DNA of 64,000 nucleotides from Lachnospiraceae bacterium (GCA_021203465.1 JAJQBC010000005.1:7866-71865); one strand, 5' to 3'; counted from the first letter of the stretch, positions 3,288 to 45,796 are shown. Notes: generated by a model not told the origin, from the sequence alone. Program-made: numbers and translations.

Positions 3288-4596
3288 ATGTATTTCCTCC
3301 AGTCATCGCATATATTTTATTTATGGCATCCTGCAGCGAGTTTGCTGTCAGATCCTGATCATATTTCTGAGTCCCGATTAGCGCTGTTTTGCATCCTGCT
3401 GCTTTGCCTGCTTTTATATCGCTTTCTCGATCACCGATCATCCAGGATTGAGACAGGTCAATGTGGAGATCTTTTGCTGCTTTTAGCAATAATCCAGGTT
3501 TGGGTTTATGACAATCACAATCTACCTTCAATTCCGGCACTTCTCCTGCATAGCCTTTATCCGGGTGATGTGGGCAAAAATAGATACCATTCAAATAAGC
3601 TCCTTCATCTCCCAGCAGAGTTTCCATTTTCTGGTGAATTCTCTCGAGCTCTTCCCATGTCACTTCTCCCCTGGCAATCACGGGCTGATTAGTGATGACG
3701 ATGGCAAGGTATTCGCTGTTATTTATTTTTTTTATAGCCTGAGCCGTTCCTTCTATCAATTCGAATTCGTCAGGTTTTCTCAGGAAACCCACATATTTGT
3801 TGATGGTGCCGTCCCTGTCCAGAAAAATAGCTTTTTGCTTCTGCTTGAGATTTTTTGCTTTAATGACTCCATCCTGAAAATCTTTACATACAGCCTTATA
3901 TCTGTCGGGAGTCCCCATATCCTTGACATATTCAGGACTGTCATATGCGAACATCTTCCCGGTTCCCGCTAGTGGCTTTAATAACTGTTTGTCCAGATCA
4001 ATTTGGGGAGAGTCCACATTTATATCCAGGATTGCCGGAGATATTACATGAATACCTGCATTTACCCTGTTTTGGTAGAATTCTGGGCGTTTTTCCGATT
4101 TTTCTATCCAGTGTCGAACAGCTTTAGTGTCAGAATCTGTAACGATCAGGCTGCTGTCATATGGATGATCATTGGGGTGTGTAAATATTGTAACCAGTCC
4201 GCCTTTGTCTTCGTGATATTTCACCATGCGGTGAAAATCTATATCAAAGACTACATCTGCATTTAATAGAAGAAATTTTTCTGTGAGCTTATCTTTCAGT
4301 CTGAACAATGCGCCCGCATTTCCAAGAGGTGTATTTTCAACATAATATTCAATGTGAACGCCAAAAGGCTGACCGGTAATGGGAGAATTTTTTTCCCCAT
4401 TTCCGAAATATTCACTAATAATATGTCCGAGATGTCCAACAGTAATAATCAGATCATCAAATCCTTGATTTTTCAGACACTGGATTTCTCGCTCCAGAAC
4501 CGGGATGCCATCAATAGGGATCATCGGTTTCGGAATATCACTGGCTACGGAAGAAATCCTTGTTCCTTTACCGCCGGCCATAATCACAGTTTTCAT
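3280..4596 (-). CDS. fused D-glycero-D-manno-heptose 1-phosphate nucleotidyltransferase (HddC-like) and heptose 1,7-bisphosphate phosphatase (GmhB-like)
   Basis: The N-terminal half carries MAGGKGTRI...PKPMIPI...GNAGALF (sugar-1-P nucleotidyltransferase). The C-terminal half carries FLDRDGTIN (HAD motif I), ITNQP, GDRESDIKAG and CPHHP...CDCHKP (GmhB zinc loop). Confidence 0.8.
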   Translation of the reverse strand: MKTVIMAGGKGTRISSVASDIPKPMIPIDGIPVLEREIQCLKNQGFDDLIITVGHLGHIISEYFGNGEKNSPITGQPFGVHIEYYVENTPLGNAGALFRLKDKLTEKFLLLNADVVFDIDFHRMVKYHEDKGGLVTIFTHPNDHPYDSSLIVTDSDTKAVRHWIEKSEKRPEFYQNRVNAGIHVISPAILDINVDSPQIDLDKQLLKPLAGTGKMFAYDSPEYVKDMGTPDRYKAVCKDFQDGVIKAKNLKQKQKAIFLDRDGTINKYVGFLRKPDEFELIEGTAQAIKKINNSEYLAIVITNQPVIARGEVTWEELERIHQKMETLLGDEGAYLNGIYFCPHHPDKGYAGEVPELKVDCDCHKPKPGLLLKAAKDLHIDLSQSWMIGDRESDIKAGKAAGCKTALIGTQKYDQDLTANSLQDAINKIYAMTGGNTYA

Positions 4597-11088: not shown

Positions 11089-11339
11089 AATATTGTCTCT
11101 CCTGCTACTCATGGCACTATTCTACTATCAAAAGGCCATGGATGCAAGCAAAAATCCGCCCGCCGACACATGCGGCGGACGGATTCGTCAAGGGGAGGAT
11201 AAGTATTTCATTTCTCTTCGGTACAGTTACAGTATACCCACCGACGGGAAAACTATACAGAAAGATGAAAATTTTATGTTGCGAAATTTTTCTCAAAAAT
11301 ACTTGTTATGTAGTTTTTGTTACTATATAATGTTAGCAA

Positions 11340-11422
11340 CAGTTCAGAACGGCGTCGAAATGACGCGTAAGCGGCATATAGCCTTCGAAGAAGGCGGTCT
11401 CAAGGCCTGCTGTTCTGAACAG
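11340..11422 (+). repeat. copy 1 of an approximately 65-nt structured intergenic repeat (R element)
   Basis: Core ATGACGCGTAAGCGGCATATAGCCTTCGAAGAAGGCGGTCTCAAGGCCTGCTGTTCTGAACAG. Near-identical cores occur at 26475-26554 (opposite strand) and 45705-45765. It contains the GCCTTC-GAA-GAAGGC hairpin. Confidence 0.8.
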
Positions 11423-11447
11423 TTTACACAGAAAGAAGGCATACAGT

Positions 11448-13766: not shown

Positions 13767-14261
13767 CGCGGCCACCGCCGCAAAGCACCGGGTTTTGCAA
13801 ACGGGCGGGCAGGAGAGTGGCCTGTATGGCGAGAGCAGTCGCCACCTTCGGGATTTTCGTCATCTGCGGCTGCGAAACCCCGAATTGAGCCTCCGGGTCA
13901 AATGTCTCTCGTCAGACTGTCGAACGATAAGTCCTTTAGATGGACATCGAGGGCGATTTGTTACAGGAACTGTATATGGCCGGAAGCGACCAAAGACGGG
14001 TTCAAAACACTACAGAATTGTTTTGAACCCGTCATTCGAAAGGTCGCGAGGCCGTATGCGTAGTTCCTGTTAAAATCGCCATCTGGGAATCTAAAGGACT
14101 TATCGTGTGGCAGGCTGTGCTGAGACTTGCCCCGGAGGCTCATTGGTTTCTCGCTCGCAGATGATGAAAATCCATCGAAGCCGCCTCCAATGCTCTCGCC
14201 ATACAGGCCACTCCCCTACTCGCCCGATTCACAGGCTTAGCGCTTTGCGGCGATGGCCGCG
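13767..14261 (+). repeat. long rod-like imperfect palindrome, copy A (about 247-nt arms)
   Basis: Arm-to-arm complementarity can be traced by hand from the apex (GACGGGTTCAAAAC, an 11-nt loop, GTTTTGAACCCGTC at about 13996-14033) out to CGCGGCCACCGCC / GGCGATGGCCGCG. The central portion is about 90 percent identical to 44100-44470. Confidence 0.85.
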
Positions 14262-25537: not shown

Positions 25538-25610
25538 AGCTGCTGACGGGAATCGGACCCGTGACCTCCGCATTACCAATGCGACGCTCTACCGACTGAG
25601 CCACAGCAGC
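25538..25610 (-). tRNA. tRNA-Thr (anticodon GGU)
   Basis: Hand-folded cloverleaf from GCTGCTGTGGCTCAGTCGGTAGAGCGTCGCATTGGTAATGCGAGGTCACGGGTCCGATTCCCGTCAGCAGCT. Acceptor stem GCTGCTG/CAGCAGC, anticodon stem TCGCA/TGCGA, anticodon loop TTGGTAA, T stem ACGGG/CCCGT. CCA is not encoded. Confidence 0.85.
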
Positions 25611-26474: not shown

Positions 26475-26554
26475 TGTAACTATTCAGAACAGCAGGCCTT
26501 GAGACCGCCTTCTTCGAAGGCTATGTGCCGCTTACGCGTCATATGACTGTTACA
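26475..26554 (-). repeat. copy 2 of the R element
   Basis: The reverse complement reads ATGACGCGTAAGCGGCACATAGCCTTCGAAGAAGGCGGTCTCAAGGCCTGCTGTTCTGAATAG, flanked by TGTAAC/GTTACA. It lies between ecfT and truA. Confidence 0.8.
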
Positions 26555-32742: not shown

Positions 32743-35700
32743 TCATTCGCTGTTGCTGAGCCACAACCCCTCAACCGTATGCGCCTCCTCAGTGGACACC
32801 CAGGTGTCGACCAGCGCCAGATTGTCCTGCGCATGGCTGATCTGCCCGTCCTTATCCAGCAGGCTGCTGTCCAGAATTCTATATACAGAAATCGTCGCTC
32901 CGGACACTTCCTCCTCGCCGGTCAGATCCATTTTGGTCAATGTCACCGCGGTCGGCTCATTCTCATGCTCCGCATAGACCGGAATATACAGGGTATATTC
33001 ATCCTCATAGGCAAAACTGACCGGATAAACTGTATCATCCATCAGATAGCCGTCCGGCGGCGTCAGCTCCTGAATGTAGTAATTCCCGGTGTTCAGCGCC
33101 GTATTGCCGTCGATCGAGCGCTCCACCGTATCGCCGCTGACTGAAGCCTGATAGATCAGCTCCGCCTCCGCTGCGTCTTCATCCTGATATTTGCTCATCA
33201 GCGCGATGTTCACCGCAAAATTCGCAAATCCGTCCGCGTCGGTCGTCGCACAGGCGAGCAGTGCGCCCGCTTCCACCAGCAGCTCCCCATCCACATTGTA
33301 GATATCGTCAGCCGTGTAGAGACCGAATCTTGCGCCGAGGAGCAACGCGCCGCTGCCCGCGTCGGCCTTATAAACGCCGACTCCCAGTTTCCGCTGCTCT
33401 TCCTCCGACGTGCTCCAGGGCTTTATACGCTGGTTGTAAAAATTTAAAAAGTCCTCCTGTGCGTCGAACACGACTTCCGTGGTCTGGTCAACGTAGGTCA
33501 ATTCCACCGTCTGCGTCTGCGCACTCAGAAGAAAACCATAGGGCGCAGCGATCTCACGAACCTCATAGCTCCCAAGCGGCAGATACACGGACACTGTCCC
33601 GAGCGTTCCGTCGTTCTCCACACGGACAATGGGCTCCGCTGTCGCGTAGTGGAGCGTATATTCCAGTGTCAGTTCATAGACCTGATAGCTCGTCTGGATC
33701 CCGGCCACCGTGACTGTGACGCTCGCGCCATCGGCAGCGAGCTCCACCGTATTCCCGCCGGTCGTGCGGAAAATCTGGGAGGCCGCGTCCCACAATAACG
33801 TCCATGTCTCGTTTTTGACCGTCAGTGTTCCGCCCTGCAGGCTCAGCTCCGCCTGTACATAGCGATTATCGCTGATCTCCTCGCAGCGGGTTTCCGTCAC
33901 GCTCCAGCCGGATGAAGTCCTCACCACCAGCGCGCCGGACGAGGTCTCATAGAGGCCGCTCTCCATCGTGACGATCGGATTTCCGGTCTCATCATACAGA
34001 ATAAAGCTCCCGTCTCCCTGCTCCACGATCGCGGCGCTTCTGTAACTCATCACACGGGTATAACCGAGATCCACCGCAGCATCCGTCTGCGCTCCGCCAG
34101 ACACACCGGGCTGCACCTCCGTCGTGTGGCTGATACGGTATCCGGATTCGGTGCATTCTACAAGATCCCCCTGCGCCCAGCCGTCCACATGGCTCTCCGT
34201 CACCTGATAAACATCAGTACAGGGCTCCAGTGTGATCCCGCTTCCGTCCGCCAGCGTCAGAACCGTGTCCTCCCCATTCTGCGTCAGATACGCGCCACTG
34301 TAAAGCTGCTGCGATGTCCAGGTGAGCCGATAGCCCTCCGCGGTCTCCGTCAGGATGCCTGCCTCCGAAGAGGCAAGCCCACTTTCCGCATCAAGCCGGG
34401 TCACATAGTCCGTCACGACCGGCTCCTCTGAGGCTCCCTCGCGATAATAGTGGCGCAGAATCTGCTGCGTCTGTTCCTTATAATAGGTATTTGGATACAC
34501 CGTCTCATCCGTGTAGGCCGGAATCCCATACAAAGCCTGATCAAGCTCGCTCATTCGCCCGGCGATCCAGTAATTCGCAACACCGCCGCTGCTTGAAAAC
34601 TGCTCCCCGCTGTATTCTTTCGAGCTGGTGAACGACGTACCGGAACCGTAATAATACGTGTAGTCATAGCTTCCGCCGCCCGTGTTCTCCGCGGTACGGT
34701 AATTGGGCTCAAAAGAGACATACTCCCCCTCCTCACCGGTCGTCACTGTTGCGACCACGTCGCCCTCGCGGAACCACCAGCCGCTGCCGTCCTGCGTCGG
34801 GATATCCTCTGCCGCGGTGATCTCATAGACCGCGTCCGCCAACGGGCGCTCCTCATAGACGAAGTCTGATTCGTCCTCATCGTAGTCGGTCAGCACCTCG
34901 CCCGTCTTCAGAATACTCAGCTTTCCAAGCACCTCGTCGTCATACATCGTCTCGCCGATATAGAGATAGTCCAGATTTCCCGAGGAGACGATGCCGGATG
35001 CTTGATAGCGTCGATCTGTCGTCACCTCAAAGTCCACCGTTCCATACCCGGAATCCAGATACAGATTATAGTAGCCATCCGGCGCGTTCAGCTCTTCCAG
35101 ACGGTAAGTACCGGCCTCCAGCGAGGCCACCGCATTCAGGCGTCCGCTCTCGTCGGTCGAAAACACGCGCTGCGCAATCATCGTGAGTTCCCCGTCCGGT
35201 CCGGAAAGGTATTTGGATACATACTGATTGTTCTGATAATCCCAGATACGAAAAGAGATGCCGGACTGCGTGACCGTCTGCCCCGACTGCGCGTCGCGCT
35301 TGACGAGAATGAGCGAGGCCACGATGCTCGCATCGGTCTGCGCCACAGATTTCGCCCGATTCTCGCTCGTCGAAGAATCAGAAACCGTCACAAACAGCGG
35401 ATCCACGGTAAACACATCCTCAGGCGTCGTCGTCTCGACCACCAGATAAGCGCCCCACGGTAGCTCCGGCGACCTTAGGTTTCCGTAGTGATTCGTGAAG
35501 ATCTCCGACAGACGGTACTCATTTTCTACGCCGGTGGCCACCCAGCCCTCTGAAATGCCGTTCACGCCGTACCACTCGCAGGGCGAACCGCTGTTCAGAC
35601 GATTAGCCTTATATGTATAGTCCGCGTTGATCGCGGCTACCATGGTTTCATCGTCCTCGTACATCCGCGCGACCGCCTGCTCCTCCCCGGAAAAATCCCA

Positions 35701-38700
35701 TTTTCCGCTCTCATTGGAATAGTAGAGATTGCGGTAGGCCGCCAGAATATCTTCCATATAATAGTAGCCGTGCCCCGCGATATAGACCAGACGGTTGACC
35801 TCTGAGAGTTCATAGTCGCTTCCGTATTTTCCCTTAAAAGGCTGGTTTTCCGCGATATAAGATTTCGTATACTGGTAACCGACGAAGCTATCCGACTCGT
35901 CCATAAGAGCGACGAGCGCGTTCTCCTTCACCAGCATGTTTCCCTCGTCCTCGCTCCAGGCCGCTGCGATCGTACCATCCTGTATAAGGCTCAGTTCCGA
36001 GAGGAGATAGACGGTGAAACCCGCACCCTCGAGCGCCGTGCCGGCTGTATTTCCGGAGGACGCGCTCTCCCCTCCGGTCGTCAACTTGCGGATCTGGAAA
36101 CCGGCCTTGATGACCTGCTGCTCCGACACGCCGTCCGTCTCATTCCTGCGGTAAATCTGCTCCGCCTCGACGAGCGTGCCCTCCTGCATCTCGTCCTGAT
36201 AGAGGAAGGAATAATGGTATTTCTGCGGATTTCCATCCCCATCCGTCGCCGCCAGATAGCCCGGCGCGAAGGAGAGCCAGTGTATTTCCGCACTCTCCTC
36301 GTCATTATTGTCCGTCGAGAAGAGGACGACTGAGCTGCGAATCTCCTCGACCAGATCATATTCTCCGAGGTACAGCCCGTTCATCTCGAATTCTCCGTCC
36401 GCGATCACAGCGCTCGCGACCTTCGCGCCCGCCTGCAGCGTCACGTCCTGCAGCGTCCAGGTGTCCGCATAGCCGTCCCCGTCCGTATCTATAAAGACCT
36501 GCTGTTCCTCGAGCACCGCAAACCAGCCGTTGTGCTTCGCGCCGCCGTACATGCCGTCCGGATGCCGGATGCCGCCGTAGGAAACGTTCTTCGCCTCGAC
36601 GCTCACATATCCGGCTTTGCTGTCCGTATAATCAAAATACAGCTTTCCCCCGCTGAGGTATGCATGCGGATAATCCTGATACGCATTCGTCCCCAAATCC
36701 GTAAAAGCAGAACCGTCGTCATCTCCATCATAAATAATGCGGTATCCGCCCGCGGCAATCGGCTGCGCCCAGAAAAGCTTTCCGTCCAGCGTGCCCTCCA
36801 GATACTGCACCTCAAAGCTGCTGTCCTCCGACACATAGAGCGAGTAGATGGCTCCGTCGAGCCCCGCGTCCCCGTGATCCGTTCCGGCCGCATAAGCCTC
36901 CGCGAGGTCGCCGTCCACATAGCGCTCCGCCTCCGCGTCCTGCTTTGAAAATTTCAGATAGCCATAGCCGCGTTCATCGATGAAAGAGTATTCCACCGCA
37001 TCGGTCACGCTCGCCTGTGTATGGTCGGTCCGCGCCGCCGCTTCCTGCGAGGCACCGTCACAGACGACCTCGCCCACCTGCAGGAAATCCCGGTCATGGA
37101 AGCCGCTCCTCACATTCAGCACAGCGGCCTCATCCCCCGCATAGGAATGATAATTGATCGCGATGTCCGTGTAGGTTCCATAATACGTGATGCGCGACGC
37201 GGAAGAGAGATTGTCGTCATAGCTGTCCGCATTGACCGTTGTCCCCACAAAGTGCAGCTGCACATCTGCGCTCTTCACCAGAGCGAAATACGTATCTGAC
37301 TTCTGCGAATCCCGGCTGATCAAAAGCCCGCTCTCCCCGCTCAGATACTGATTCCAATATCGATCCCAGAACACGTTCAGCACATCCTGCACGGCACTGC
37401 CCAGAGCGTAGCGCTGCAGTGCGATCATCTCCTGAAGGCCGAACTGTTCATAGGTAAGCGCGTCATAATCATCCAGAGTCCCCACATCGTTCGCATAGTA
37501 GGCGTTTTCATAGCCCTCATGACCGTCCGTCAGCATATAGGTGGCGTATTGGTTCGTATCCTCACAGAGATTCAGGTAATGCACGAGTTTCTCCGTGCTG
37601 GCCTGTTCACCTGTCCCGTCCCGGTCGCTGTAATTTCCCAGATAACCGTTTCGCTCCCCGTCCGCAGGAGCGCTCTTCTCCACGATACAGAAACGCCCCA
37701 GATTGGCCTGTGTGTAGTAGAGCGTTCCATAGCTGTCATAGCCGTAGCTCACGCCTGTATCCGTATCCGTCGCGGAGCTGAAATTTGTCCCACAGTACTG
37801 ATCCGTCACGGAAATCCGATGCACCGTGTACATACCGATCACCGTGTCCGGCCAGCCCATCTCCTTCGCGATATCCGCGGTTACACGCACAATCTCATAA
37901 TTTTTCTGTCCCCAGGTCGTGTAATCGTCCGGATCGGCCGCCAGACCGTAATCCCGCTCCGCGACCGTCAACTGCCCGGTTGAGACCGAGAAGGCGCTGT
38001 CGTAACGGTAGGTGCCATCCGCGAGAATCGTTCCCGTATAATAGTAAAGCGTCACGGAACCATCCGCGTCCACAGCGGCAGCCACAAAATACAGGCCGTT
38101 TCCCTCACCCGTGTAGGACACCCCATCATCGGAATACAGAACGATCCCTGTATCCTCCATGCTCTCATAGACAAAAACCGTGCCTCCGGAGCTGTACTCG
38201 ATGTGCGCGCCGTCATCCTGCGCGGTGTAGACACTCTCCGTCCCTTCCGTGTCAGTATATACGTACTGCCAGAGACCGCTCGCCGCATCGACTTCGTAAG
38301 AGATCGTCCCTCCGTCTGCGGTCGTATAGAGCATCGCACCGGCTCCCAATATCTCTGTATCACTGATCGCAATCTGGTTTTCCATCTCGGCCAGAAGCTG
38401 ATACACGCCTTTTCCCGTCTCCACCAGCTCTGTTGTTTCATAATACAGAGTATCCGCCAAGCTGAGATCCTGACTGCTGTCAATCGTGATCTCCAGCCGC
38501 GCCAGATAATCTCCGGCCGCCGTGGGCGTATAGGACAACGCATACGCGTAGGGCGTCGCCAGATTATCCACCAGCTTCGCCACATCCAAGTTCCAGCTTT
38601 CGTACTCGTGCCCGCTCTCATCCGTCACGGTCAGCTCAGCGGCCGCAATCAGCTCCGTCTGCAGCGCCGACCCCTTCTCCCGGATCAGACCGCTCAGCAG

Positions 38701-41109
38701 CATCGACGGATAGAGCGTCTTTTTCTGCGCAGTCGCCTGAGCCGTCCACTGATAATATTCATAAATTTCAAATTCTGTGTCATAAAGAATCTGCGCGCCG
38801 CTCTCCAGATCAGTCTTATTGATAAAAATCTGATTGTACCACGGCTCGTCCGTGACATTTGTGTTCGATGCCCCGGAATCGCTGTCATTCCTTCCGCCGA
38901 CTGTCATCGTCCCGCCGTTGGAGACGATTTCCGAGTAAGTTCCTATTGTCGTAGCGCCATTCACATCCCTGCGATATCCGGCCAGAGGCAGCGTGACCTC
39001 CGCAAGCGTCCGTCCATTTGAATCATTCGCGCTTCCGCGCGTATACTGGTCGAGCTCCGTGACCGTATAGCGGTAAGTGCGCGACATATAGGAATCATAC
39101 TGTTCCTCGAGCGTGCCCTGCGCGCTCTCCTTCGCCTGCGTCCATGCATCCTGCTGCTCTTCGTAAATCTCCTCAAGCTCTTCCGCCGTGAGTTCGACGG
39201 AATCTCCCATGTAGGACACAGCCAGCACGTCGCCGACGCTCAGGGTCGCCGCTGCCGCGAGCGCCTCCGCCCACAGCGATTCATAGGTATCCTGATCGGT
39301 CTCCTCCCCGGGTTCCTTCATGTACTGGCTGTAGGATTCCCGGAAGCTGTGTTCATGCACAAAGCTCGTGTACGCATAACCGTTCGCGTCCGTCATGAGC
39401 TCGGTCTGATGGTCGCCGCCCGACGGCTCGACATCCTCATCCATATAGGGCACGGAAATTCCATAGTTGCCGGCCGAATCGGTATCTTCGCTCTCCACCA
39501 CCTGAAAACGCACGCCCTCCAGAAGCTCATTGGTGATAATGCTCTCCTTCGTGATCTCCACACAGTACTGCGCGGAGGCCTTCTTTTCCAGATCATAATT
39601 TTCAATATAGGGAATGAGCAGCTCACCCGCCACCGCGGATACCGGGGATGTCCCGATGCTCCAGGTAATAATCCACTGGGCGTTCGTCTGCGCCGGGCAG
39701 ACCCAGAAGCAAAGCTCCGCATGGCTGCCCGGATAATAATCGATGCCGCTCACATTGGTGAAGTCGTCGAAATCCAGAGTACCGTCCATATAATGATTGA
39801 TCGCATTGGAAAATGTACTCAGCGCGCCGTAGACGTAGCTCGCGTCGCCGCCGTAAATTTTTCCGGCCGCCTCGCTGATTCCGCCGTCGTTCCAGGCCAC
39901 GTCGATATCGAAATAGACGCTGTCGTCGGGCATATTGTTGATAATATACCAGATCGCGAGCTGCATCGCCGCGTAGTCGTGGGACTGCTGCTGCGTCGTC
40001 TTCAGGTAACAGTTCACCACACACTTGATCAGATTGTACTGATAACTGCTGAGCGCTGTCCCGTTCGGCGCAATGATCGATGAATAATCCACCTGCTCGT
40101 AATGCCAGCCTGTCCTGTACGAGCCGCCATACAGGGCGCAGAATGCCGTGTGGCGCGTTCCACTGTTGTCTTTTGCATAGAGCTTCACGACCTTATCGTG
40201 AGCCCTACTGCTTCCCAGTGAGGAAATTACACCAAGCGCGCTCCCGCCCAGAGAACCGATCCCGGCGGATGTCAGAGACGACGGAACGTCATTCTCGCCG
40301 GACAGCAGCAAGACCCCGTAGAGATCCACGTACTCGCTCCGCCCCAGCGCCTCATAGACCCAGTCCGGGAGTTCCCGTCCACTCAGGTATCTGCCGGTAA
40401 TATAAGAAAAATTATATTCCGCCTCCGCCATGCTGCGCAGAGTTTCTATCGTGAATCCCGAGAAAATCGTCCCGCGGAAGAAATGCGCCAGATCCATCCC
40501 TTCTTCCGCCAACTCGATGATCTCCTCCACATCGTCGGTGTAAATTTCCGGGATTTCATTTCCATCCTCATCTACGGCGTAGACAAAATTCCCGCTGCAG
40601 GCCGGATCTCCGTAGCCATAATTGTCGTATGGAGTGATTTCGTCCTGCTCTGCCTGTTCGACTGCTTCCTCCGTGGCGACAACGATTTCCACGGCTTCAC
40701 TCCCGTCGTCGTCCGTCTCCTCTTCCTCCGTAATCTCTGTCTCGTCACCGCCTTCATCGGAAATCCCCATGAGCTGCTCTTCCGCATCATTTTCCTCTGC
40801 CGAAGAGGCCTCGCCATCGGAGTCCTCCTGAATCCGTCCGTCCGTTTCCTGATCTGCCCTGTCCGGATTCTCCGTATCTGACTCTTCCGTTTCCGGCTCC
40901 TGCGCATCGAAATCCGACTCCTCTTCGCCTGATTCCCCGTCGCTCTGTCCCTCCGTGTTCTGACTCTCCGTGCACGGTTCTTCTGTGCTCTCTCCCAACG
41001 ACGCCGTGTAGGAATCATCCGCGCGCGATATCATACCCGCTGACGGAGCGGAGCAAAACAGAACCGTGGCCAGAAGCAGGCACAGGCAGCGCTCTGCTGT
41101 TTTTTTCAT
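32743..41109 (-). CDS. giant surface adhesin (2788 aa from MKKTAERC) with a thioester-like domain and many CnaB/SpaA-type repeats
   Basis: Signal peptide MKKTAERCLCLLLATVLFCSAPSAG, a roughly 130-aa poly-acidic region, FCALYGG plus AMQLAIWYI (thioester-domain Cys and Gln motifs), and repeated GxYxLxExxAPxGY-type motifs (YRLEELNAPDGY, YEVREIAAPYGF, YYIQELTPPDGY). It ends at a TGA in the middle of a domain. Confidence 0.85.
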   Translation of the reverse strand: MKKTAERCLCLLLATVLFCSAPSAGMISRADDSYTASLGESTEEPCTESQNTEGQSDGESGEEESDFDAQEPETEESDTENPDRADQETDGRIQEDSDGEASSAEENDAEEQLMGISDEGGDETEITEEEETDDDGSEAVEIVVATEEAVEQAEQDEITPYDNYGYGDPACSGNFVYAVDEDGNEIPEIYTDDVEEIIELAEEGMDLAHFFRGTIFSGFTIETLRSMAEAEYNFSYITGRYLSGRELPDWVYEALGRSEYVDLYGVLLLSGENDVPSSLTSAGIGSLGGSALGVISSLGSSRAHDKVVKLYAKDNSGTRHTAFCALYGGSYRTGWHYEQVDYSSIIAPNGTALSSYQYNLIKCVVNCYLKTTQQQSHDYAAMQLAIWYIINNMPDDSVYFDIDVAWNDGGISEAAGKIYGGDASYVYGALSTFSNAINHYMDGTLDFDDFTNVSGIDYYPGSHAELCFWVCPAQTNAQWIITWSIGTSPVSAVAGELLIPYIENYDLEKKASAQYCVEITKESIITNELLEGVRFQVVESEDTDSAGNYGISVPYMDEDVEPSGGDHQTELMTDANGYAYTSFVHEHSFRESYSQYMKEPGEETDQDTYESLWAEALAAAATLSVGDVLAVSYMGDSVELTAEELEEIYEEQQDAWTQAKESAQGTLEEQYDSYMSRTYRYTVTELDQYTRGSANDSNGRTLAEVTLPLAGYRRDVNGATTIGTYSEIVSNGGTMTVGGRNDSDSGASNTNVTDEPWYNQIFINKTDLESGAQILYDTEFEIYEYYQWTAQATAQKKTLYPSMLLSGLIREKGSALQTELIAAAELTVTDESGHEYESWNLDVAKLVDNLATPYAYALSYTPTAAGDYLARLEITIDSSQDLSLADTLYYETTELVETGKGVYQLLAEMENQIAISDTEILGAGAMLYTTADGGTISYEVDAASGLWQYVYTDTEGTESVYTAQDDGAHIEYSSGGTVFVYESMEDTGIVLYSDDGVSYTGEGNGLYFVAAAVDADGSVTLYYYTGTILADGTYRYDSAFSVSTGQLTVAERDYGLAADPDDYTTWGQKNYEIVRVTADIAKEMGWPDTVIGMYTVHRISVTDQYCGTNFSSATDTDTGVSYGYDSYGTLYYTQANLGRFCIVEKSAPADGERNGYLGNYSDRDGTGEQASTEKLVHYLNLCEDTNQYATYMLTDGHEGYENAYYANDVGTLDDYDALTYEQFGLQEMIALQRYALGSAVQDVLNVFWDRYWNQYLSGESGLLISRDSQKSDTYFALVKSADVQLHFVGTTVNADSYDDNLSSASRITYYGTYTDIAINYHSYAGDEAAVLNVRSGFHDRDFLQVGEVVCDGASQEAAARTDHTQASVTDAVEYSFIDERGYGYLKFSKQDAEAERYVDGDLAEAYAAGTDHGDAGLDGAIYSLYVSEDSSFEVQYLEGTLDGKLFWAQPIAAGGYRIIYDGDDDGSAFTDLGTNAYQDYPHAYLSGGKLYFDYTDSKAGYVSVEAKNVSYGGIRHPDGMYGGAKHNGWFAVLEEQQVFIDTDGDGYADTWTLQDVTLQAGAKVASAVIADGEFEMNGLYLGEYDLVEEIRSSVVLFSTDNNDEESAEIHWLSFAPGYLAATDGDGNPQKYHYSFLYQDEMQEGTLVEAEQIYRRNETDGVSEQQVIKAGFQIRKLTTGGESASSGNTAGTALEGAGFTVYLLSELSLIQDGTIAAAWSEDEGNMLVKENALVALMDESDSFVGYQYTKSYIAENQPFKGKYGSDYELSEVNRLVYIAGHGYYYMEDILAAYRNLYYSNESGKWDFSGEEQAVARMYEDDETMVAAINADYTYKANRLNSGSPCEWYGVNGISEGWVATGVENEYRLSEIFTNHYGNLRSPELPWGAYLVVETTTPEDVFTVDPLFVTVSDSSTSENRAKSVAQTDASIVASLILVKRDAQSGQTVTQSGISFRIWDYQNNQYVSKYLSGPDGELTMIAQRVFSTDESGRLNAVASLEAGTYRLEELNAPDGYYNLYLDSGYGTVDFEVTTDRRYQASGIVSSGNLDYLYIGETMYDDEVLGKLSILKTGEVLTDYDEDESDFVYEERPLADAVYEITAAEDIPTQDGSGWWFREGDVVATVTTGEEGEYVSFEPNYRTAENTGGGSYDYTYYYGSGTSFTSSKEYSGEQFSSSGGVANYWIAGRMSELDQALYGIPAYTDETVYPNTYYKEQTQQILRHYYREGASEEPVVTDYVTRLDAESGLASSEAGILTETAEGYRLTWTSQQLYSGAYLTQNGEDTVLTLADGSGITLEPCTDVYQVTESHVDGWAQGDLVECTESGYRISHTTEVQPGVSGGAQTDAAVDLGYTRVMSYRSAAIVEQGDGSFILYDETGNPIVTMESGLYETSSGALVVRTSSGWSVTETRCEEISDNRYVQAELSLQGGTLTVKNETWTLLWDAASQIFRTTGGNTVELAADGASVTVTVAGIQTSYQVYELTLEYTLHYATAEPIVRVENDGTLGTVSVYLPLGSYEVREIAAPYGFLLSAQTQTVELTYVDQTTEVVFDAQEDFLNFYNQRIKPWSTSEEEQRKLGVGVYKADAGSGALLLGARFGLYTADDIYNVDGELLVEAGALLACATTDADGFANFAVNIALMSKYQDEDAAEAELIYQASVSGDTVERSIDGNTALNTGNYYIQELTPPDGYLMDDTVYPVSFAYEDEYTLYIPVYAEHENEPTAVTLTKMDLTGEEEVSGATISVYRILDSSLLDKDGQISHAQDNLALVDTWVSTEEAHTVEGLWLSNSE

Positions 41110-41214
41110 TTTTAATGCCCTTTCCAGCACAAAAAGTGTGCAAACTACCTTCACCCGCAGCACCTGCCTCTGCGGGCGATCTCTATGCATTTTCATTTGG
41201 GGAATTCACCGATG

Positions 41215-41435
41215 AAACATCGGCGTTCGATTTTTTTGGACGTTTTTATTCTAATACGGCAAGAAGATTTTGTCAAATGAAATATGAAAAGCCCTTAACT
41301 CGCGAATACGCAAAGAAAAGATGGGTTCAAAACACTTTTTGTATTGTTTTGAACCCATCTTTGGTCAGTCCCTGCCGTATGCAGTTCCTGTAACAAATCG
41401 CCCTCGACATCCATCTGTCGACTTTCTTTCTGACT
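41215..41435 (-). repeat. degenerate, inverted copy C of the long palindrome family
   Basis: The minus strand reads GATGGATGTCGAGGGCGATTTGTTACAGGAACTGCATACGGCAGGGACTGACCAAAGATGGGTTCAAAACAATACAAAAAGTGTTTTGAACCCATC, matching the left arm and apex of copies A and B. The other arm is only patchily recognisable (GCCGTAT..., AAAATCG...). Confidence 0.7.
41248..41276 (-). promoter_or_regulatory. candidate promoter of the adhesin operon, embedded in the decayed arm of copy C
   Basis: Minus strand reads TTGACA, a 17-nt spacer, then TAGAAT. The 5' UTR of about 130 nt contains the CCCGCAG...CTGCGGG hairpin. Confidence 0.45.
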
Positions 41436-43012: not shown

Positions 43013-43906
43013 TTACTGAGCAATGATGCTGTTCTCGATGCCGTAAGTCGTCGCGATCTCGACCATGCTACCGTCCGCGTAGCTCTCCGCGAAGAACTCG
43101 TTCAGCATCTCAACCAGATCGGAACCCTGACGGAATCCAACGCCGTACTCCTCGTCGACCAGCACGACACCCGTCGTGAGATCTTCATAGCTGGTGCCCT
43201 CGCCCACCATGGCTTCCGCCATCAGGAGGTCGATGATCGCCGCATCCGAGGTGCCCGCCGCAACCTCCATCAGCGCGTTCGCCTGATTACTGACAGAAGT
43301 ATAGGAAAGACCATTGTCTTCCGCAGCCGCCTCGCCGGCGCTGCCGGATTCTACTGCAAAGCTGAGATCCGCAAGGCTCTCCACATCCGCGTAGTCCTCC
43401 GCGACATCCGCTGCGAGAACAACGACCTGGGAATTGCTGCTGTAAGCGTTCGAACAATCCATCGCGCTCATGACCTCATCGGTCAGCGTCATGCCGTTCC
43501 ACACACAGTCGATCGTCTTGCCATCCAGCTCCAGAATCTTGTTGTCCCAGTCGATCTCGACGAACTCAACCGCTACGCCGAGGCTCTCCGCAAAAGCGGT
43601 CGCCATGTCGGCATCAAAGCCGATCCAGTTGCCATCCTCATCCTTGTAGTCCATCGGCTCGAAATCCGTGATACCGACAACCAGAGTACCCTTCTCCTGC
43701 ACATAGGCAAGATCACTGTCCGCATCAGCCGCCTCTTCAGCCTCCTCAGCCTCTTCCACCTCTTCAGTCTCCTCTTCGACTTCGGCCTCTTCCTCGTCCG
43801 TCGTCTCCTCGGTTTCCGTGGTGGTCTCCGTGGAACTTGAGCTGCCGCATCCGGCCATGCTGAGTACCATGACGCCCGTAAGCATCAACGCAAGTAACTT
43901 TTTCAT
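43013..43906 (-). CDS. amino-acid ABC transporter substrate-binding lipoprotein (family 3)
   Basis: Start at MKKLLALMLTGVMVLSMAGCGSS (lipobox), a roughly 45-aa Thr/Glu-rich linker, then the SBP fold (LVVGITDFEPMDYKD...). The ORF-track start at 44221 runs into repeat copy B. Confidence 0.9.
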   Translation of the reverse strand: MKKLLALMLTGVMVLSMAGCGSSSSTETTTETEETTDEEEAEVEEETEEVEEAEEAEEAADADSDLAYVQEKGTLVVGITDFEPMDYKDEDGNWIGFDADMATAFAESLGVAVEFVEIDWDNKILELDGKTIDCVWNGMTLTDEVMSAMDCSNAYSSNSQVVVLAADVAEDYADVESLADLSFAVESGSAGEAAAEDNGLSYTSVSNQANALMEVAAGTSDAAIIDLLMAEAMVGEGTSYEDLTTGVVLVDEEYGVGFRQGSDLVEMLNEFFAESYADGSMVEIATTYGIENSIIAQ

Positions 43907-43973: not shown

Positions 43974-44002
43974 ATCATAACAGCACATCCTGCAAATGTC
44001 AA
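43974..44002 (-). promoter_or_regulatory. candidate promoter of the ABC transporter operon
   Basis: Minus strand reads TTGACA, a 17-nt spacer, then TATGAT. It abuts the base of hairpin copy B. Confidence 0.5.
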
Positions 44003-44020
44003 GAAAAACTGTAAGCACTC

Positions 44021-44550
44021 ACGGCCCGGTCCCCCGCATCCGGCACCCGCCGCCGCAACAGGCAATTTGCTTCGAGCGCGCAGGCAGCACGCCCTCCTGT
44101 GGGGAGAAGTAGTCGCCGCCTTCGGAATTTTCGTCATCTGCGGCTGCGAAACCCTGAACTGAGCCTCCGGGCCAAATGTCGCCCGGCAGGCTGTCGCCCG
44201 ATAAGTCCTTTTGATGGACATCGAGGGCGATTTGTTACAAGAACTGCATACGGCTGGAAGCGACCAAAGACGGGTTCAAAACACTACAGAATTGTTTTGA
44301 ACCCGTCATTCGTAAGGTCGCGAAGCCGTATGCATAGTTCTTGTTAAAATCGCCATCTGGGAATTAAAAGGACTTATCAGGTGGCAGACTGTGCCACGAC
44401 TTGTCCCGGAGGCTCATCTGTTTCTCGCTCGCAGATGATGAAAATTCATCGAAGCCGTCTCCCATACTTCTCCCCACAGGAGGGTGTGCCGCCTGCGCGC
44501 TCATTCCAAACGTTGCAGCGGCGGGTGTCGGATGCGGGGAAACGGGCTGT
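44021..44550 (+). repeat. long rod-like imperfect palindrome, copy B (about 265-nt arms)
   Basis: It has the same apex and inner arms as copy A. The outer arms have different sequence but are again self-complementary: CCTCCTGTGGGGAGAAGTA / TACTTCTCCCCACAGGAGG, GAGCGCGCAGGC / GCCTGCGCGCTC, CCCCGCATCCG / CGGATGCGGGG. Confidence 0.85.
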
Positions 44551-44563
44551 GAAATGCGGCGCA

Positions 44564-45571
44564 TTACAGCTTGTCGATCGGCGTATTCAGGATGCGCTCC
44601 GTCTCCTCGGCCTTTTCCTTCTCCCGGCGGCGCTTGCTGCGGATGTTCAGGAAGACGAGCACTGCGACGACGATGATCACGACAGCGGCCAGAATATAGG
44701 GCAGCCGGGACGCGAGCGTCGGCGTCGTGCTCATGATACGGTCTGCGGTCTTCGAGAACACTTGGGAGAAATACTCTTCATCGCTCAGATCGCTGTAATA
44801 ATAGGCGTCCACATAGTCGAGCAGGATCTCGCAGGCCTCCGAATCCATGACCGTCTGCGCGTTCGTTCCGACGATATAGTAAATGCTGTAATCGCTCGAA
44901 CTCCACTCGACAAAGACGAGCAGTACCCCAGCCTCGTTATCGCCTGCCAGTTCCGTATACTTATCGTCACAATAAGCTTCGATCTCGTCGTTCGTCGCGG
45001 AACGGCTACCGTTCACGTTGTCAGTGATCACGAGATAGGGCTGCACGCCGGTCTCCTTATAGAAGGTCTCCATACCGGAGAGCGTCGTGCTCTTATTGAG
45101 AATCCAGTCCAGCTCGTCGTCGATGCAGTCGCTGTCAAACGAAGCATAGGGTTGGATTGCCTCGCGCTCTACCGTACTCGTCGTAATATCCGAGGTCGAC
45201 GAGGAAGCGAAGCCTCTGGTCGCCGAACGCATCATGGAAAAAAGCACCATAACCACAAGGATACACACTATCAGCATGGAAGTACCGCAGCCGGCTCCGC
45301 GTCTTCCGTAGCCGCCATAGCCCCAGCCGCCGAACCAGGATCTCCGCGGTGGCCTCGGTGGGCGCGGACCGCCCGTACCTCCCATGCCCGGTCCAAAACC
45401 GCCGCCCGGCGCACCGTAACTGCCCCCGCCACGGTTCCGGCTGCCGGAACCCATCGAGCCGCCACGGCTCGAACCGCTCGAGCTCCTGCCGCCAAAGCTG
45501 CGGCCTCCTCCTGAACTGTGTCCTCCGCTGCTGCGGCCTCCGCCGCCGCCTCCTGCACCGCCTCTGCCCAT
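44564..45571 (-). CDS. membrane protein with a Gly/Arg-rich N-terminal tail and a TPM-like domain between two TM segments
   Basis: The first roughly 95 aa are almost only G/S/R/P. TM1 follows (MLIVCILVVMVLFSMM), then an approximately 190-aa domain resembling TPM (METFYKETGVQPYLVITDNV...AGVLLVFVEW...IYYIVG), then TM2 and a basic tail. Confidence 0.55.
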   Translation of the reverse strand: MGRGGAGGGGGGRSSGGHSSGGGRSFGGRSSSGSSRGGSMGSGSRNRGGGSYGAPGGGFGPGMGGTGGPRPPRPPRRSWFGGWGYGGYGRRGAGCGTSMLIVCILVVMVLFSMMRSATRGFASSSTSDITTSTVEREAIQPYASFDSDCIDDELDWILNKSTTLSGMETFYKETGVQPYLVITDNVNGSRSATNDEIEAYCDDKYTELAGDNEAGVLLVFVEWSSSDYSIYYIVGTNAQTVMDSEACEILLDYVDAYYYSDLSDEEYFSQVFSKTADRIMSTTPTLASRLPYILAAVVIIVVAVLVFLNIRSKRRREKEKAEETERILNTPIDKL

Positions 45572-45704
45572 ATTTTTCAGCCTCCTCTTTTTTCTTTAAC
45601 AGTTCCGAGCAGTAATGAAATAAAAAACAGACTGTGCAGGTTTACCTGCTAAAGGCTGTATTTTTATTTCGGGATGGGCGGAACGCCCATCAAGCCTCAG
45701 ACAT

Positions 45705-45765
45705 ATGACGCGCAAGCGGCATATAGCCTTCGAAGAAGGCGGTCTGTGGCCTGCTGCTCTAATAG
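45705..45765 (+). repeat. copy 3 of the R element
   Basis: ATGACGCGCAAGCGGCATATAGCCTTCGAAGAAGGCGGTCTGTGGCCTGCTGCTCTAATAG, between the pspA stop and the TPM-like gene. Confidence 0.8.
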
Positions 45766-45796
45766 TTGCTTTGCACCAATTCAGAACAAGTCTGAT

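Follow-up and report, generated by a model that had tools for sequence, protein, structure and literature searches.

In a 64,000-nt stretch of DNA from a Lachnospiraceae bacterium (GCA_021203465.1 JAJQBC010000005.1:7866-71865), referred to below as the window, the spacer between a gene for a TPM-like membrane protein and an ABC transporter operon carries a 534-nt imperfect palindrome, copy B, which is one of two full copies of a repeat; the other is copy A, and there is also one remnant, copy C. We read the element as a new and unusually long intergenic repeat of the hairpin type, resembling the miniature inverted-repeat transposable elements (MITEs). The interpretation that we favour, with a probability that we put at about 60%, is that it is a non-coding hairpin of about 0.4-0.55 kb, carried between genes as a tolerated insert, with outer arms that would be kept matched mainly by recopying at the DNA level. 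The paired changes by which its copies differ are not proof of a selected RNA structure.

The copies have a common layout. Moving outward from a core that holds an apex hairpin there is a stem, S2, of 32-51 bp, then an internal loop of 9-19 nt per side, and then the outermost stem, S1 (coordinates for copy B are in Table 1). S2 is hypervariable among copies and yet nearly perfectly complementary inside each copy. The arms of the core are only about 73-76% alike, and its bulges and internal loops are identical in every copy; since the bulges and loops are fixed and the arms asymmetric, one can tell which way the core points. The stem of the apex hairpin is invariant, and the apex loop varies among copies in both length and sequence. 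As RNA, copy B folds into a single rod of -359.6 kcal/mol (shuffles -197 ± 7; z = -23), and copy A gives z = -21.6 against its shuffles. The two are direct repeats, with the middle 300-377 nt 89-90% identical. Their outer arms are homologous but strongly diverged, with GCCGCCGCAA, GAGCGNGCAGGC and CCTGT..GGAGA in common, and the left arm of S1 in copy B carries CCCGGTCCC together with a GCCGCCGCAAC motif that is also present in other copies.

Pairing was examined in six full copies, over 175 pairs, with 500 shuffles and sets of slid partners as controls. Cells were paired in 96% of cases, against 90.8% in the shuffles, and both sides had changed in 38 of the 175 pairs where the shuffles gave 21 ± 2.9 (none of the 500 reached 38). 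The covariation score was 0.205, compared with 0.100 for shuffles and 0.04-0.085 for slid partners. Pairing is kept far beyond chance; the rod is real and something maintains it. However DNA-level copying of one arm from the other is expected to give the same covariation signal, and the question is which process the details of the changes support.

The details differ between the parts of the rod. The cores of A and B differ by 5-6 changes that are mirrored, 7 that are one-sided and 10 that fall at unpaired positions. In helix 5, the most variable helix, which lies in S2, both sides have changed in 13 of the 17 pairs, including G:C to C:G and A:T to T:A, and the 17 pairs include no G·U and no one-sided change. 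Over about 264 bp the S2 arms show only 6 mismatches, each of them a transition; two wobble on the plus strand and four on the minus strand, so that there is no strand bias, and the outer stems are about 98% Watson-Crick.

The rate at which the outer stems diverge can be set against that of neutral sites. They differ by about 40% between copies, and by about 30% between copy B and the copy at locus L004 (loci outside the window are given L numbers), which we take as orthologs as both flanks match. Between B and L004 the four-fold degenerate sites of two neighbouring genes are 69% and 73% identical and the flanking spacer is 73% identical, while the core is 93% identical and the outer arms about 53% (about 69% within S2). 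For six copies the mean pairwise difference (pi) in the outer stems is 0.41, against about 0.3 at four-fold sites. By our own estimate, arms evolving independently would be expected to be about 72% alike, this being 0.85 squared, with half of the roughly 30% divergence assigned to each arm. The outer stems thus appear to diverge at about the neutral rate, and this speaks against selection for pairing, which should slow them.

There are also mirrored insertions and deletions (indels). One is in the core, where TTT has become GT (L005 and L006). In the others the two arms differ together by 5 nt (ACGGC) between L006 and L003, and by about 10 nt (TCCCCCGCAT / ATGCGGGGA) between B and L004. In addition the palindrome of copy B has grown outward on both sides relative to that at L004 (TCACGG / CTGTGA). 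Mirrored indels are not attributable to selection acting on paired point mutations, which cannot make them. In contrast arm-to-arm copying accounts for the mirrored indels, the near-exact complementarity, the neutral rate and the absence of G·U. It has been proposed that multibase 'compensatory' changes can arise in one step by template switching, which can also fix the pairing of stems (PMC8794818). Two polymorphisms in copy B fit the arm-recopying picture. At 44528 and 44365 it carries a T that makes a G·T mismatch, whereas related strains (two of them at 44528) show the C of a G:C pair, and these mismatches are accordingly young C-to-T changes.

With regard to the original prediction, the rod of copy B and its resemblance to copy A hold up, the four paired A/B differences that it listed (GGATT/GAATT, ACAGG/ACAAG, TTTA/TTTT, GGCC/GGCT) are all present, as are the self-complementary outer strings quoted for B, and the covariation for which it called is indeed above background. 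Its argument that simple transposition would give identical ends was a fair one. In describing the outer arms of A and B as largely different it was right as to their strong divergence, but the statement was too strong for arms that are homologous and have motifs in common. Its principal claim was that the compensatory changes show selection for pairing. For the outer stems the neutral rate, the mirrored indels and the lack of G·U speak against this, and in the core such selection is possible only. The prediction had itself allowed for a copy-correction mechanism, and in the outer stems this alternative is favoured by the near-exact reverse-complement arms and the mirrored indels. It had also said that homogenisation of a palindrome at the DNA level would count against the claim; that outcome fits the outer stems, so selection for pairing is not established.

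We suggest that one outer arm would be recopied from the other, either by recombination or gene conversion between the inverted arms or by template switching during replication, and that a new mutation or indel in one outer arm would then be erased or mirrored. The same arm-to-arm exchange would invert segments lying between perfect stems. The arms of the core would be too diverged for recopying and would be conserved in sequence instead, with mirrored changes arising only occasionally. In a read-through transcript the insert would fold back on itself and unite the split halves of the host hairpin beside its U-run, and insertion between operons would be tolerated as a consequence. The most likely role, as we infer it, is that of a tolerated insert that refolds the hairpin it splits.

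The presence of such a host hairpin is clearest at the B site. The spacer between the TPM-like gene and the gene for the solute-binding protein (SBP) is 656 nt in the window and 120 nt in a sister genome (L017/L018), in which the empty site reads CTGTAAGCCCGGAGGATTACAG, then AGTTTTTCTT on the gene strand, then the same TTGACA-17-TATGAT promoter-like site that follows copy B. The empty site folds as CUGUAA.CC-loop-GG.UUACAG, followed by AGUUUUUCUU. In both B and L004 it is the apex of this small hairpin that holds the element, with the basal stem (CTGTAA / TTACAG) and the T-run retained; in the window the TTACAG half (44564-44569) includes the stop codon of the TPM-like gene, and the T-run is seen on the given strand as a run of five A at 44004-44008. 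The copy at L006 is similarly placed within a GGCCTCC..GGAGGCC stem with a T-run after it. Copy B had been described as following the last gene of an operon and preceding a strong promoter. This is correct, and the location is better put as an insertion in the apex of a small hairpin after the TPM-like gene.

At the A site polC and purA are separated by about 595 nt in the window, compared with 108 nt in L002 and a similarly short distance in L008. The empty site in L008 reads TTTTCACGCGGC|TTCA and the filled site in the window TTTTCA[CGCGGCC...GGCCGCG]GGGCTTCA. In L002 the spacer retains, at 4110-4135, 19 nt, CGCGGTCGCCGCGGCAAA, of which 16 match the left end of copy A, and this 'empty' site looks like the footprint of a lost element, not a site that was never occupied. 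Conversely L002 has a copy upstream of a DUF1836 gene, where the window has none. These alleles show that the element is gained or lost as a unit. For the B site the tree ((window, AH.13_1), (C.6_6, L016)) fits either one loss or two gains. The motif C(C/G)CGG is found at the junctions and in the empty alleles, and as it is itself palindromic a target duplication cannot be separated from the palindrome, nor insertion from near-precise deletion. A target-site duplication was looked for at A, B, L002, L004, L006, L003 and L012, and only L002 gave a possible direct repeat, of 15 nt. The ends are the most variable part of the element and differ in length between orthologs; only C(C/G)CGG and GCCGCCGCAA recur in them. 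Orientation relative to the flanking genes is mixed across loci. No transposase or parent element was seen in the window, in the fetched loci or in the plasmid and phage collections.

Segments between the stems are also found in alternative arrangements. The copies at L016 and L004 have the same outer arms, flanks that are 97.4% identical and core arms that are 98-100% identical, and the core is flipped between the S2 arms. In two comparisons, B with L004 and L006 with L003, the two sides of the internal loop are on opposite arms and the core has kept its orientation. Exchange between perfect stems would give such isomers, and would also homogenise the stems.

Several points weigh against a tolerated insert with recopied arms. 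The rate argument is based on only two or three orthologous pairs, and copies may exchange sequence, as the S2 of copy B resembles the S2 of L012 more than it does that of its ortholog L004. Neither a transposase nor a clear boundary to the terminal repeats nor a target duplication was found; the hairpin of the empty B site went uncalled in the terminator scan, and the A site is without a U-run. The coverage of the metagenome-assembled genomes (MAGs) is 4-11x, and the flips and the 100% complementarity in MAG copies could have been made in assembly. Where arms are perfect, de Bruijn assemblers can place the segment between them in the wrong orientation, and they can also merge arms that differ. 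However mirrored sequences that are specific to a copy cannot be produced by assembly error of this kind.

The core presents a further difficulty. Over six copies its paired columns have a pi of 0.067, against 0.19 for unpaired columns and 0.21 for the apex loop, so that the paired columns evolve about threefold more slowly than unpaired ones, and neutral sites are faster by far. Such slow evolution is not explained by neutral copying between arms, and some constraint on the core has to be accepted. In every copy it is the plus strand, and not the minus strand, that has the better fold (the difference for the core being 0.3 to 20 kcal/mol), and the five conserved mismatches of transition type are all G·T on the plus strand. 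This bias hints at a strand-specific single-stranded form, but as all copies share ancestry it counts as a single observation. There are about 8-10 mirrored substitutions in core helices of 9-24 bp, which could be short template switches or true compensatory evolution, and selection for pairing in the core is possible.

Of the alternatives the one that survives best is a cis-acting structured RNA, a rod in a 3' untranslated region or between operons that would serve as terminator, mRNA stabiliser or RNase III site, with selection for RNA pairing yielding all of the compensatory changes. We regard it as unlikely, but as deserving serious consideration. The significant covariation given above is what it predicts, as is the greater conservation of core helices than of core loops, and it would make sense of the four to five conserved plus-strand G·U and of the better fold of the plus strand. 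Most copies also lie just past a stop codon, in or beside sites with a hairpin and T-run. However G·U and one-sided changes are missing from the most variable helix, and the 5-nt and ~10-nt mirrored indels are equally foreign to it; compensatory evolution would also be expected to be slower than the near-neutral rate of the outer stems. The element occurs in both orientations with respect to transcription and has the same conserved plus-strand wobbles in each, and the read-through transcripts of A and B would therefore hold A·C mismatches. No promoter-like site was seen inside A or B, the copy family has no match in Rfam 15 at gathering scores or at E ≤ 1, and at the same sites sister genomes lack the element.

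It is also conceivable, although we think it rather improbable, that the core is a functional module, being either a mobile element borne on a hairpin or a rod retained by the host with the plus strand active. In the mobile-element version it would target the apex of a terminator-like hairpin (C(C/G)CGG) and move as single-stranded DNA with the help of some enzyme, the outer stems being regrown by fold-back synthesis. Either version would explain why orthologous cores evolve 4-5x more slowly than neutral DNA while the outer stems are free to diverge.

The flips described above raise the possibility of an inverton, in which the perfect stems would be the inverted repeats of a recombinase and flipping of the core would alter expression of a neighbour. 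The core is flipped between L016 and L004 within one species and loop segments are swapped in two ortholog pairs, but we consider an inverton very unlikely. The core is itself about 75% palindromic, and neither of its orientations offers a promoter-like site; the flanking stems vary in sequence among copies where a recombinase site would be conserved, no recombinase gene adjoins any copy, and the flips may be assembly ambiguity. That the palindrome is due to chance or is a mis-assembled fold-back is hardly credible. Same-strain short-read contigs do stop at the apex and assemblers handle palindromes poorly, but seven independent assemblies, and several loci, show this architecture with outer arms particular to each copy, there are orthologous filled and empty alleles with clean junctions, and the core has fixed asymmetries not expected of an artificial fold-back.

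Table 1. Copies of the repeat in the window, parts of copy B, and neighbouring features (window coordinates)
Feature	Position	Strand	Remarks
Copy A, full	13767-14261	+	Same orientation as B; between polC stop (14267) and purA start (13672)
Copy C, remnant	41317-41424	-	Apex hairpin and one inner arm; nhmmer match
Copy B, full quasi-palindromic element, 534 nt	44019-44552	.	Inverted-repeat search, fold, nhmmer match
Stem S1, left arm, outermost	44019-44059	.	Partner 44512-44552; 88% complementary
Internal loop, left side, 14 nt	44060-44073	.	Opposite 44503-44511 (9 nt)
Stem S2, left arm	44074-44111	.	Partner 44465-44502; 95% complementary
Asymmetric conserved core, 353 nt	44112-44464	+	84-93% identity among copies
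Apex hairpin	44269-44307	.	Invariant 15-bp stem GACGGGTTCAAAACA / TGTTTTGAACCCGTC, loop 9-14 nt
Stem S2, right arm	44465-44502	.	Inverted-repeat search
Stem S1, right arm, outermost	44512-44552	.	T at 44528 gives G·T mismatch
Upstream gene, membrane protein	44564-45571	-	Weak TPM-domain match below Pfam cutoff
Downstream gene, solute-binding protein SBP_bac_3	43013-43906	-	First in ABC transporter operon
Promoter-like TTGACA-17-TATGAT, TG-extended	43974-44002	-	For ABC transporter operon; outside element
CTGTAA, half of pre-existing small hairpin split by element	44009-44014	-	Empty allele L017/L018

The transporter operon downstream of copy B has the order SBP_bac_3 / BPD_transp_1 / ABC_tran. 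Close homologs of the TPM-like protein number only two, and those that come next are about 50% identical, which indicates sparse sampling of the clade. No record was obtained for purA or the SBP by exact look-up.

In public data the family is restricted to a single group of uncultured Lachnospiraceae that are related to one another. When one genome per species was scanned for exact matches to the apex hairpin, eight loci were obtained in four Lachnospiraceae MAGs, with one to three loci per MAG. Two further assemblies with copies were reached by other routes, L012 through a spurious match to an open reading frame (ORF) and L016 through a homolog of a neighbouring gene; the flanking DNA of L016 is about 97% identical to that of a MAG (the comparison with L004 given above). 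The six assemblies outside the window represent four or five genomes, which are about 86-90% identical to the window across the flanking genes. Copies range from 404 to 545 nt. A search with nhmmer across the window and all fetched loci found no further copies, blastn gave no match in plasmid and phage collections, a scan of viral contigs gave 0 matches, and a scan of metagenomes with the apex pattern gave only unrelated terminator-like hairpins (L009-L011).

Two other views of the element were tried and rejected. A protein-coding role fails as no ORF is open in all copies; the 82-aa ORF of B and the 92-aa ORF of A are broken in L002, L004, L005, L006 and L008, and the protein search gave one spurious match. 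The outer arms are for most of their length not pre-existing local DNA, since unrelated loci have the same motifs; what is local is confined to the basal hairpin and the few bases at the very outside.

One copy was excluded from the counts. That in L008 (4950-5420) has non-complementary outer arms, a core in the opposite orientation, and only its right flank in common with L002; we took it to be the outcome of a rearrangement involving two copies, or else a chimera made in assembly. Logan contigs from three samples of the same strain (L013-L015, equivalent to window 44304/44416-45651) break off within the element, in two cases exactly at the apex. As the palindrome breaks short-read assemblies, copy numbers in MAGs are probably underestimates.

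Decay is seen in copy C and in the internal-deletion derivatives at L012 and L016, the central deletion at L016 having AGTC microhomology at its junction. At 41248-41360 the apex hairpin of copy C, with a U-rich tail, comes directly after the gene for an ABC ATPase and is followed by a TTGACA-17-TAGAAT promoter-like site for a gene of 2817 aa; the remnant may now act as the terminator of the ABC operon.

The element resembles the MITEs and the Correia (Neisseria), ERIC/IRU (enterobacteria) and RUP/BOX (pneumococcus) repeats in being non-coding, multi-copy and intergenic with a hairpin from end to end, and also in its presence or absence at orthologous sites, its truncated derivatives and its presumed co-transcription with neighbouring genes (see the review PMC3184786). 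However it is 3-5x longer than these and has nested stems with segments that flip. In MITEs as defined by their transposase the ends are conserved, and here the reverse applies, the ends being the least and the middle the most conserved part, and neither target duplication nor parent insertion sequence (IS) was found. It is thus like a MITE in being short and non-coding, with several dispersed copies and presence or absence at orthologous sites, while the defining tests of conserved ends, target duplication and parent IS are failed or left undecided.

IS1397 and ISKpn1 insert into REP (repetitive extragenic palindromic) sequences, and class C group II introns insert beside the stem-loops of terminators; both kinds of element encode their own enzyme. 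There is a likeness in that our element occupies the apex of a small hairpin with a T-run at B, and a stem with a T-run at L006, but it encodes nothing, and the site preference is drawn from two or three sites, of which A has no U-run. REPINs are about 100 bp long, comprise two REP units of 20-40 bp with GTAG/CGTC tags, and are mobilised by RAYT transposases. They too are hairpin-forming, non-autonomous repeats that persist vertically (see the REP survey in PMC3733652). The present element differs from them in size and architecture, and no REP units or RAYT were seen, the host genomes not having been searched for RAYT.

In the case of homogenised arms there are precedents on a much larger scale. 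Human Y-chromosome palindromes and plastid inverted repeats undergo arm-to-arm gene conversion, and the plastid repeats exist as flip-flop isomers. As in our element, the arms stay near-identical while the pair diverges between lineages, and the spacer inverts. However the arms here are tens of bp, compared with kb to Mb, they are non-coding, and the host is a bacterium. At the scale of short stems, template-switch (quasipalindrome) mutations in E. coli are reportedly the subject of work by Ripley and by Lovett. Such mutations make mirrored and multibase changes in one step, can extend palindromes and need no G·U intermediates (Mönttinen and Löytynoja 2022, PMC8794818), as we propose for the outer stems. 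That work dealt with short stems in RNA genes and mutation reporters, whereas here the process would have been repeated on stems of 35-50 bp in a 0.5-kb repeat, and is deduced from comparison of sequences only.

The family carries a caution for RNA discovery, as covariation, which is usually taken as the gold standard, would here come largely from DNA-level copying between arms. We suggest that covariation tests on palindromic repeats should use a null model that includes such copying. The family also shows how a long palindrome persists in a gut Firmicute, with mirrored indels, growth into the flanks, segment flips and hairpin-type deletions. As an unannotated element that breaks short-read assemblies at its apex, it may serve as a practical marker. 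If the slow evolution of the core reflects function, then a new cis-element or mobility mechanism awaits discovery.

A smaller repeat, unrelated to the first, is present in the window at 11338-11428 (+), 26478-26549 (-) and 45690-45770 (+). It is about 70-90 nt long and has ATGACGCGYAAGCGGCAYATAGCCTTCGAAGAAGGCGGTCT as its core, and there is a further copy in the dnaK-dnaJ spacer of L012 (14259-14439). The copy at 11338-11428 is closed by a 13-bp inverted repeat (AACAGTTCAGAAC / GTTCTGAACAGTT), folds as a three-hairpin junction (z = -5.3), and is 92% identical to a copy in another genome, which is above the identity of the surrounding genes. It has no credible match in Rfam, the sole match being to an lncRNA (long non-coding RNA) model with E = 0.89, far under the cutoff. 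An ORF of 2817 aa at 32743-41196 (-), which the syntenic regions of L016 and L017 lack, has a start resembling a signal peptide and an acidic, repeat-rich product that is probably a giant protein of the cell surface. At gathering score Rfam matches the window once only, at a tRNA gene (25538-25610, minus strand).

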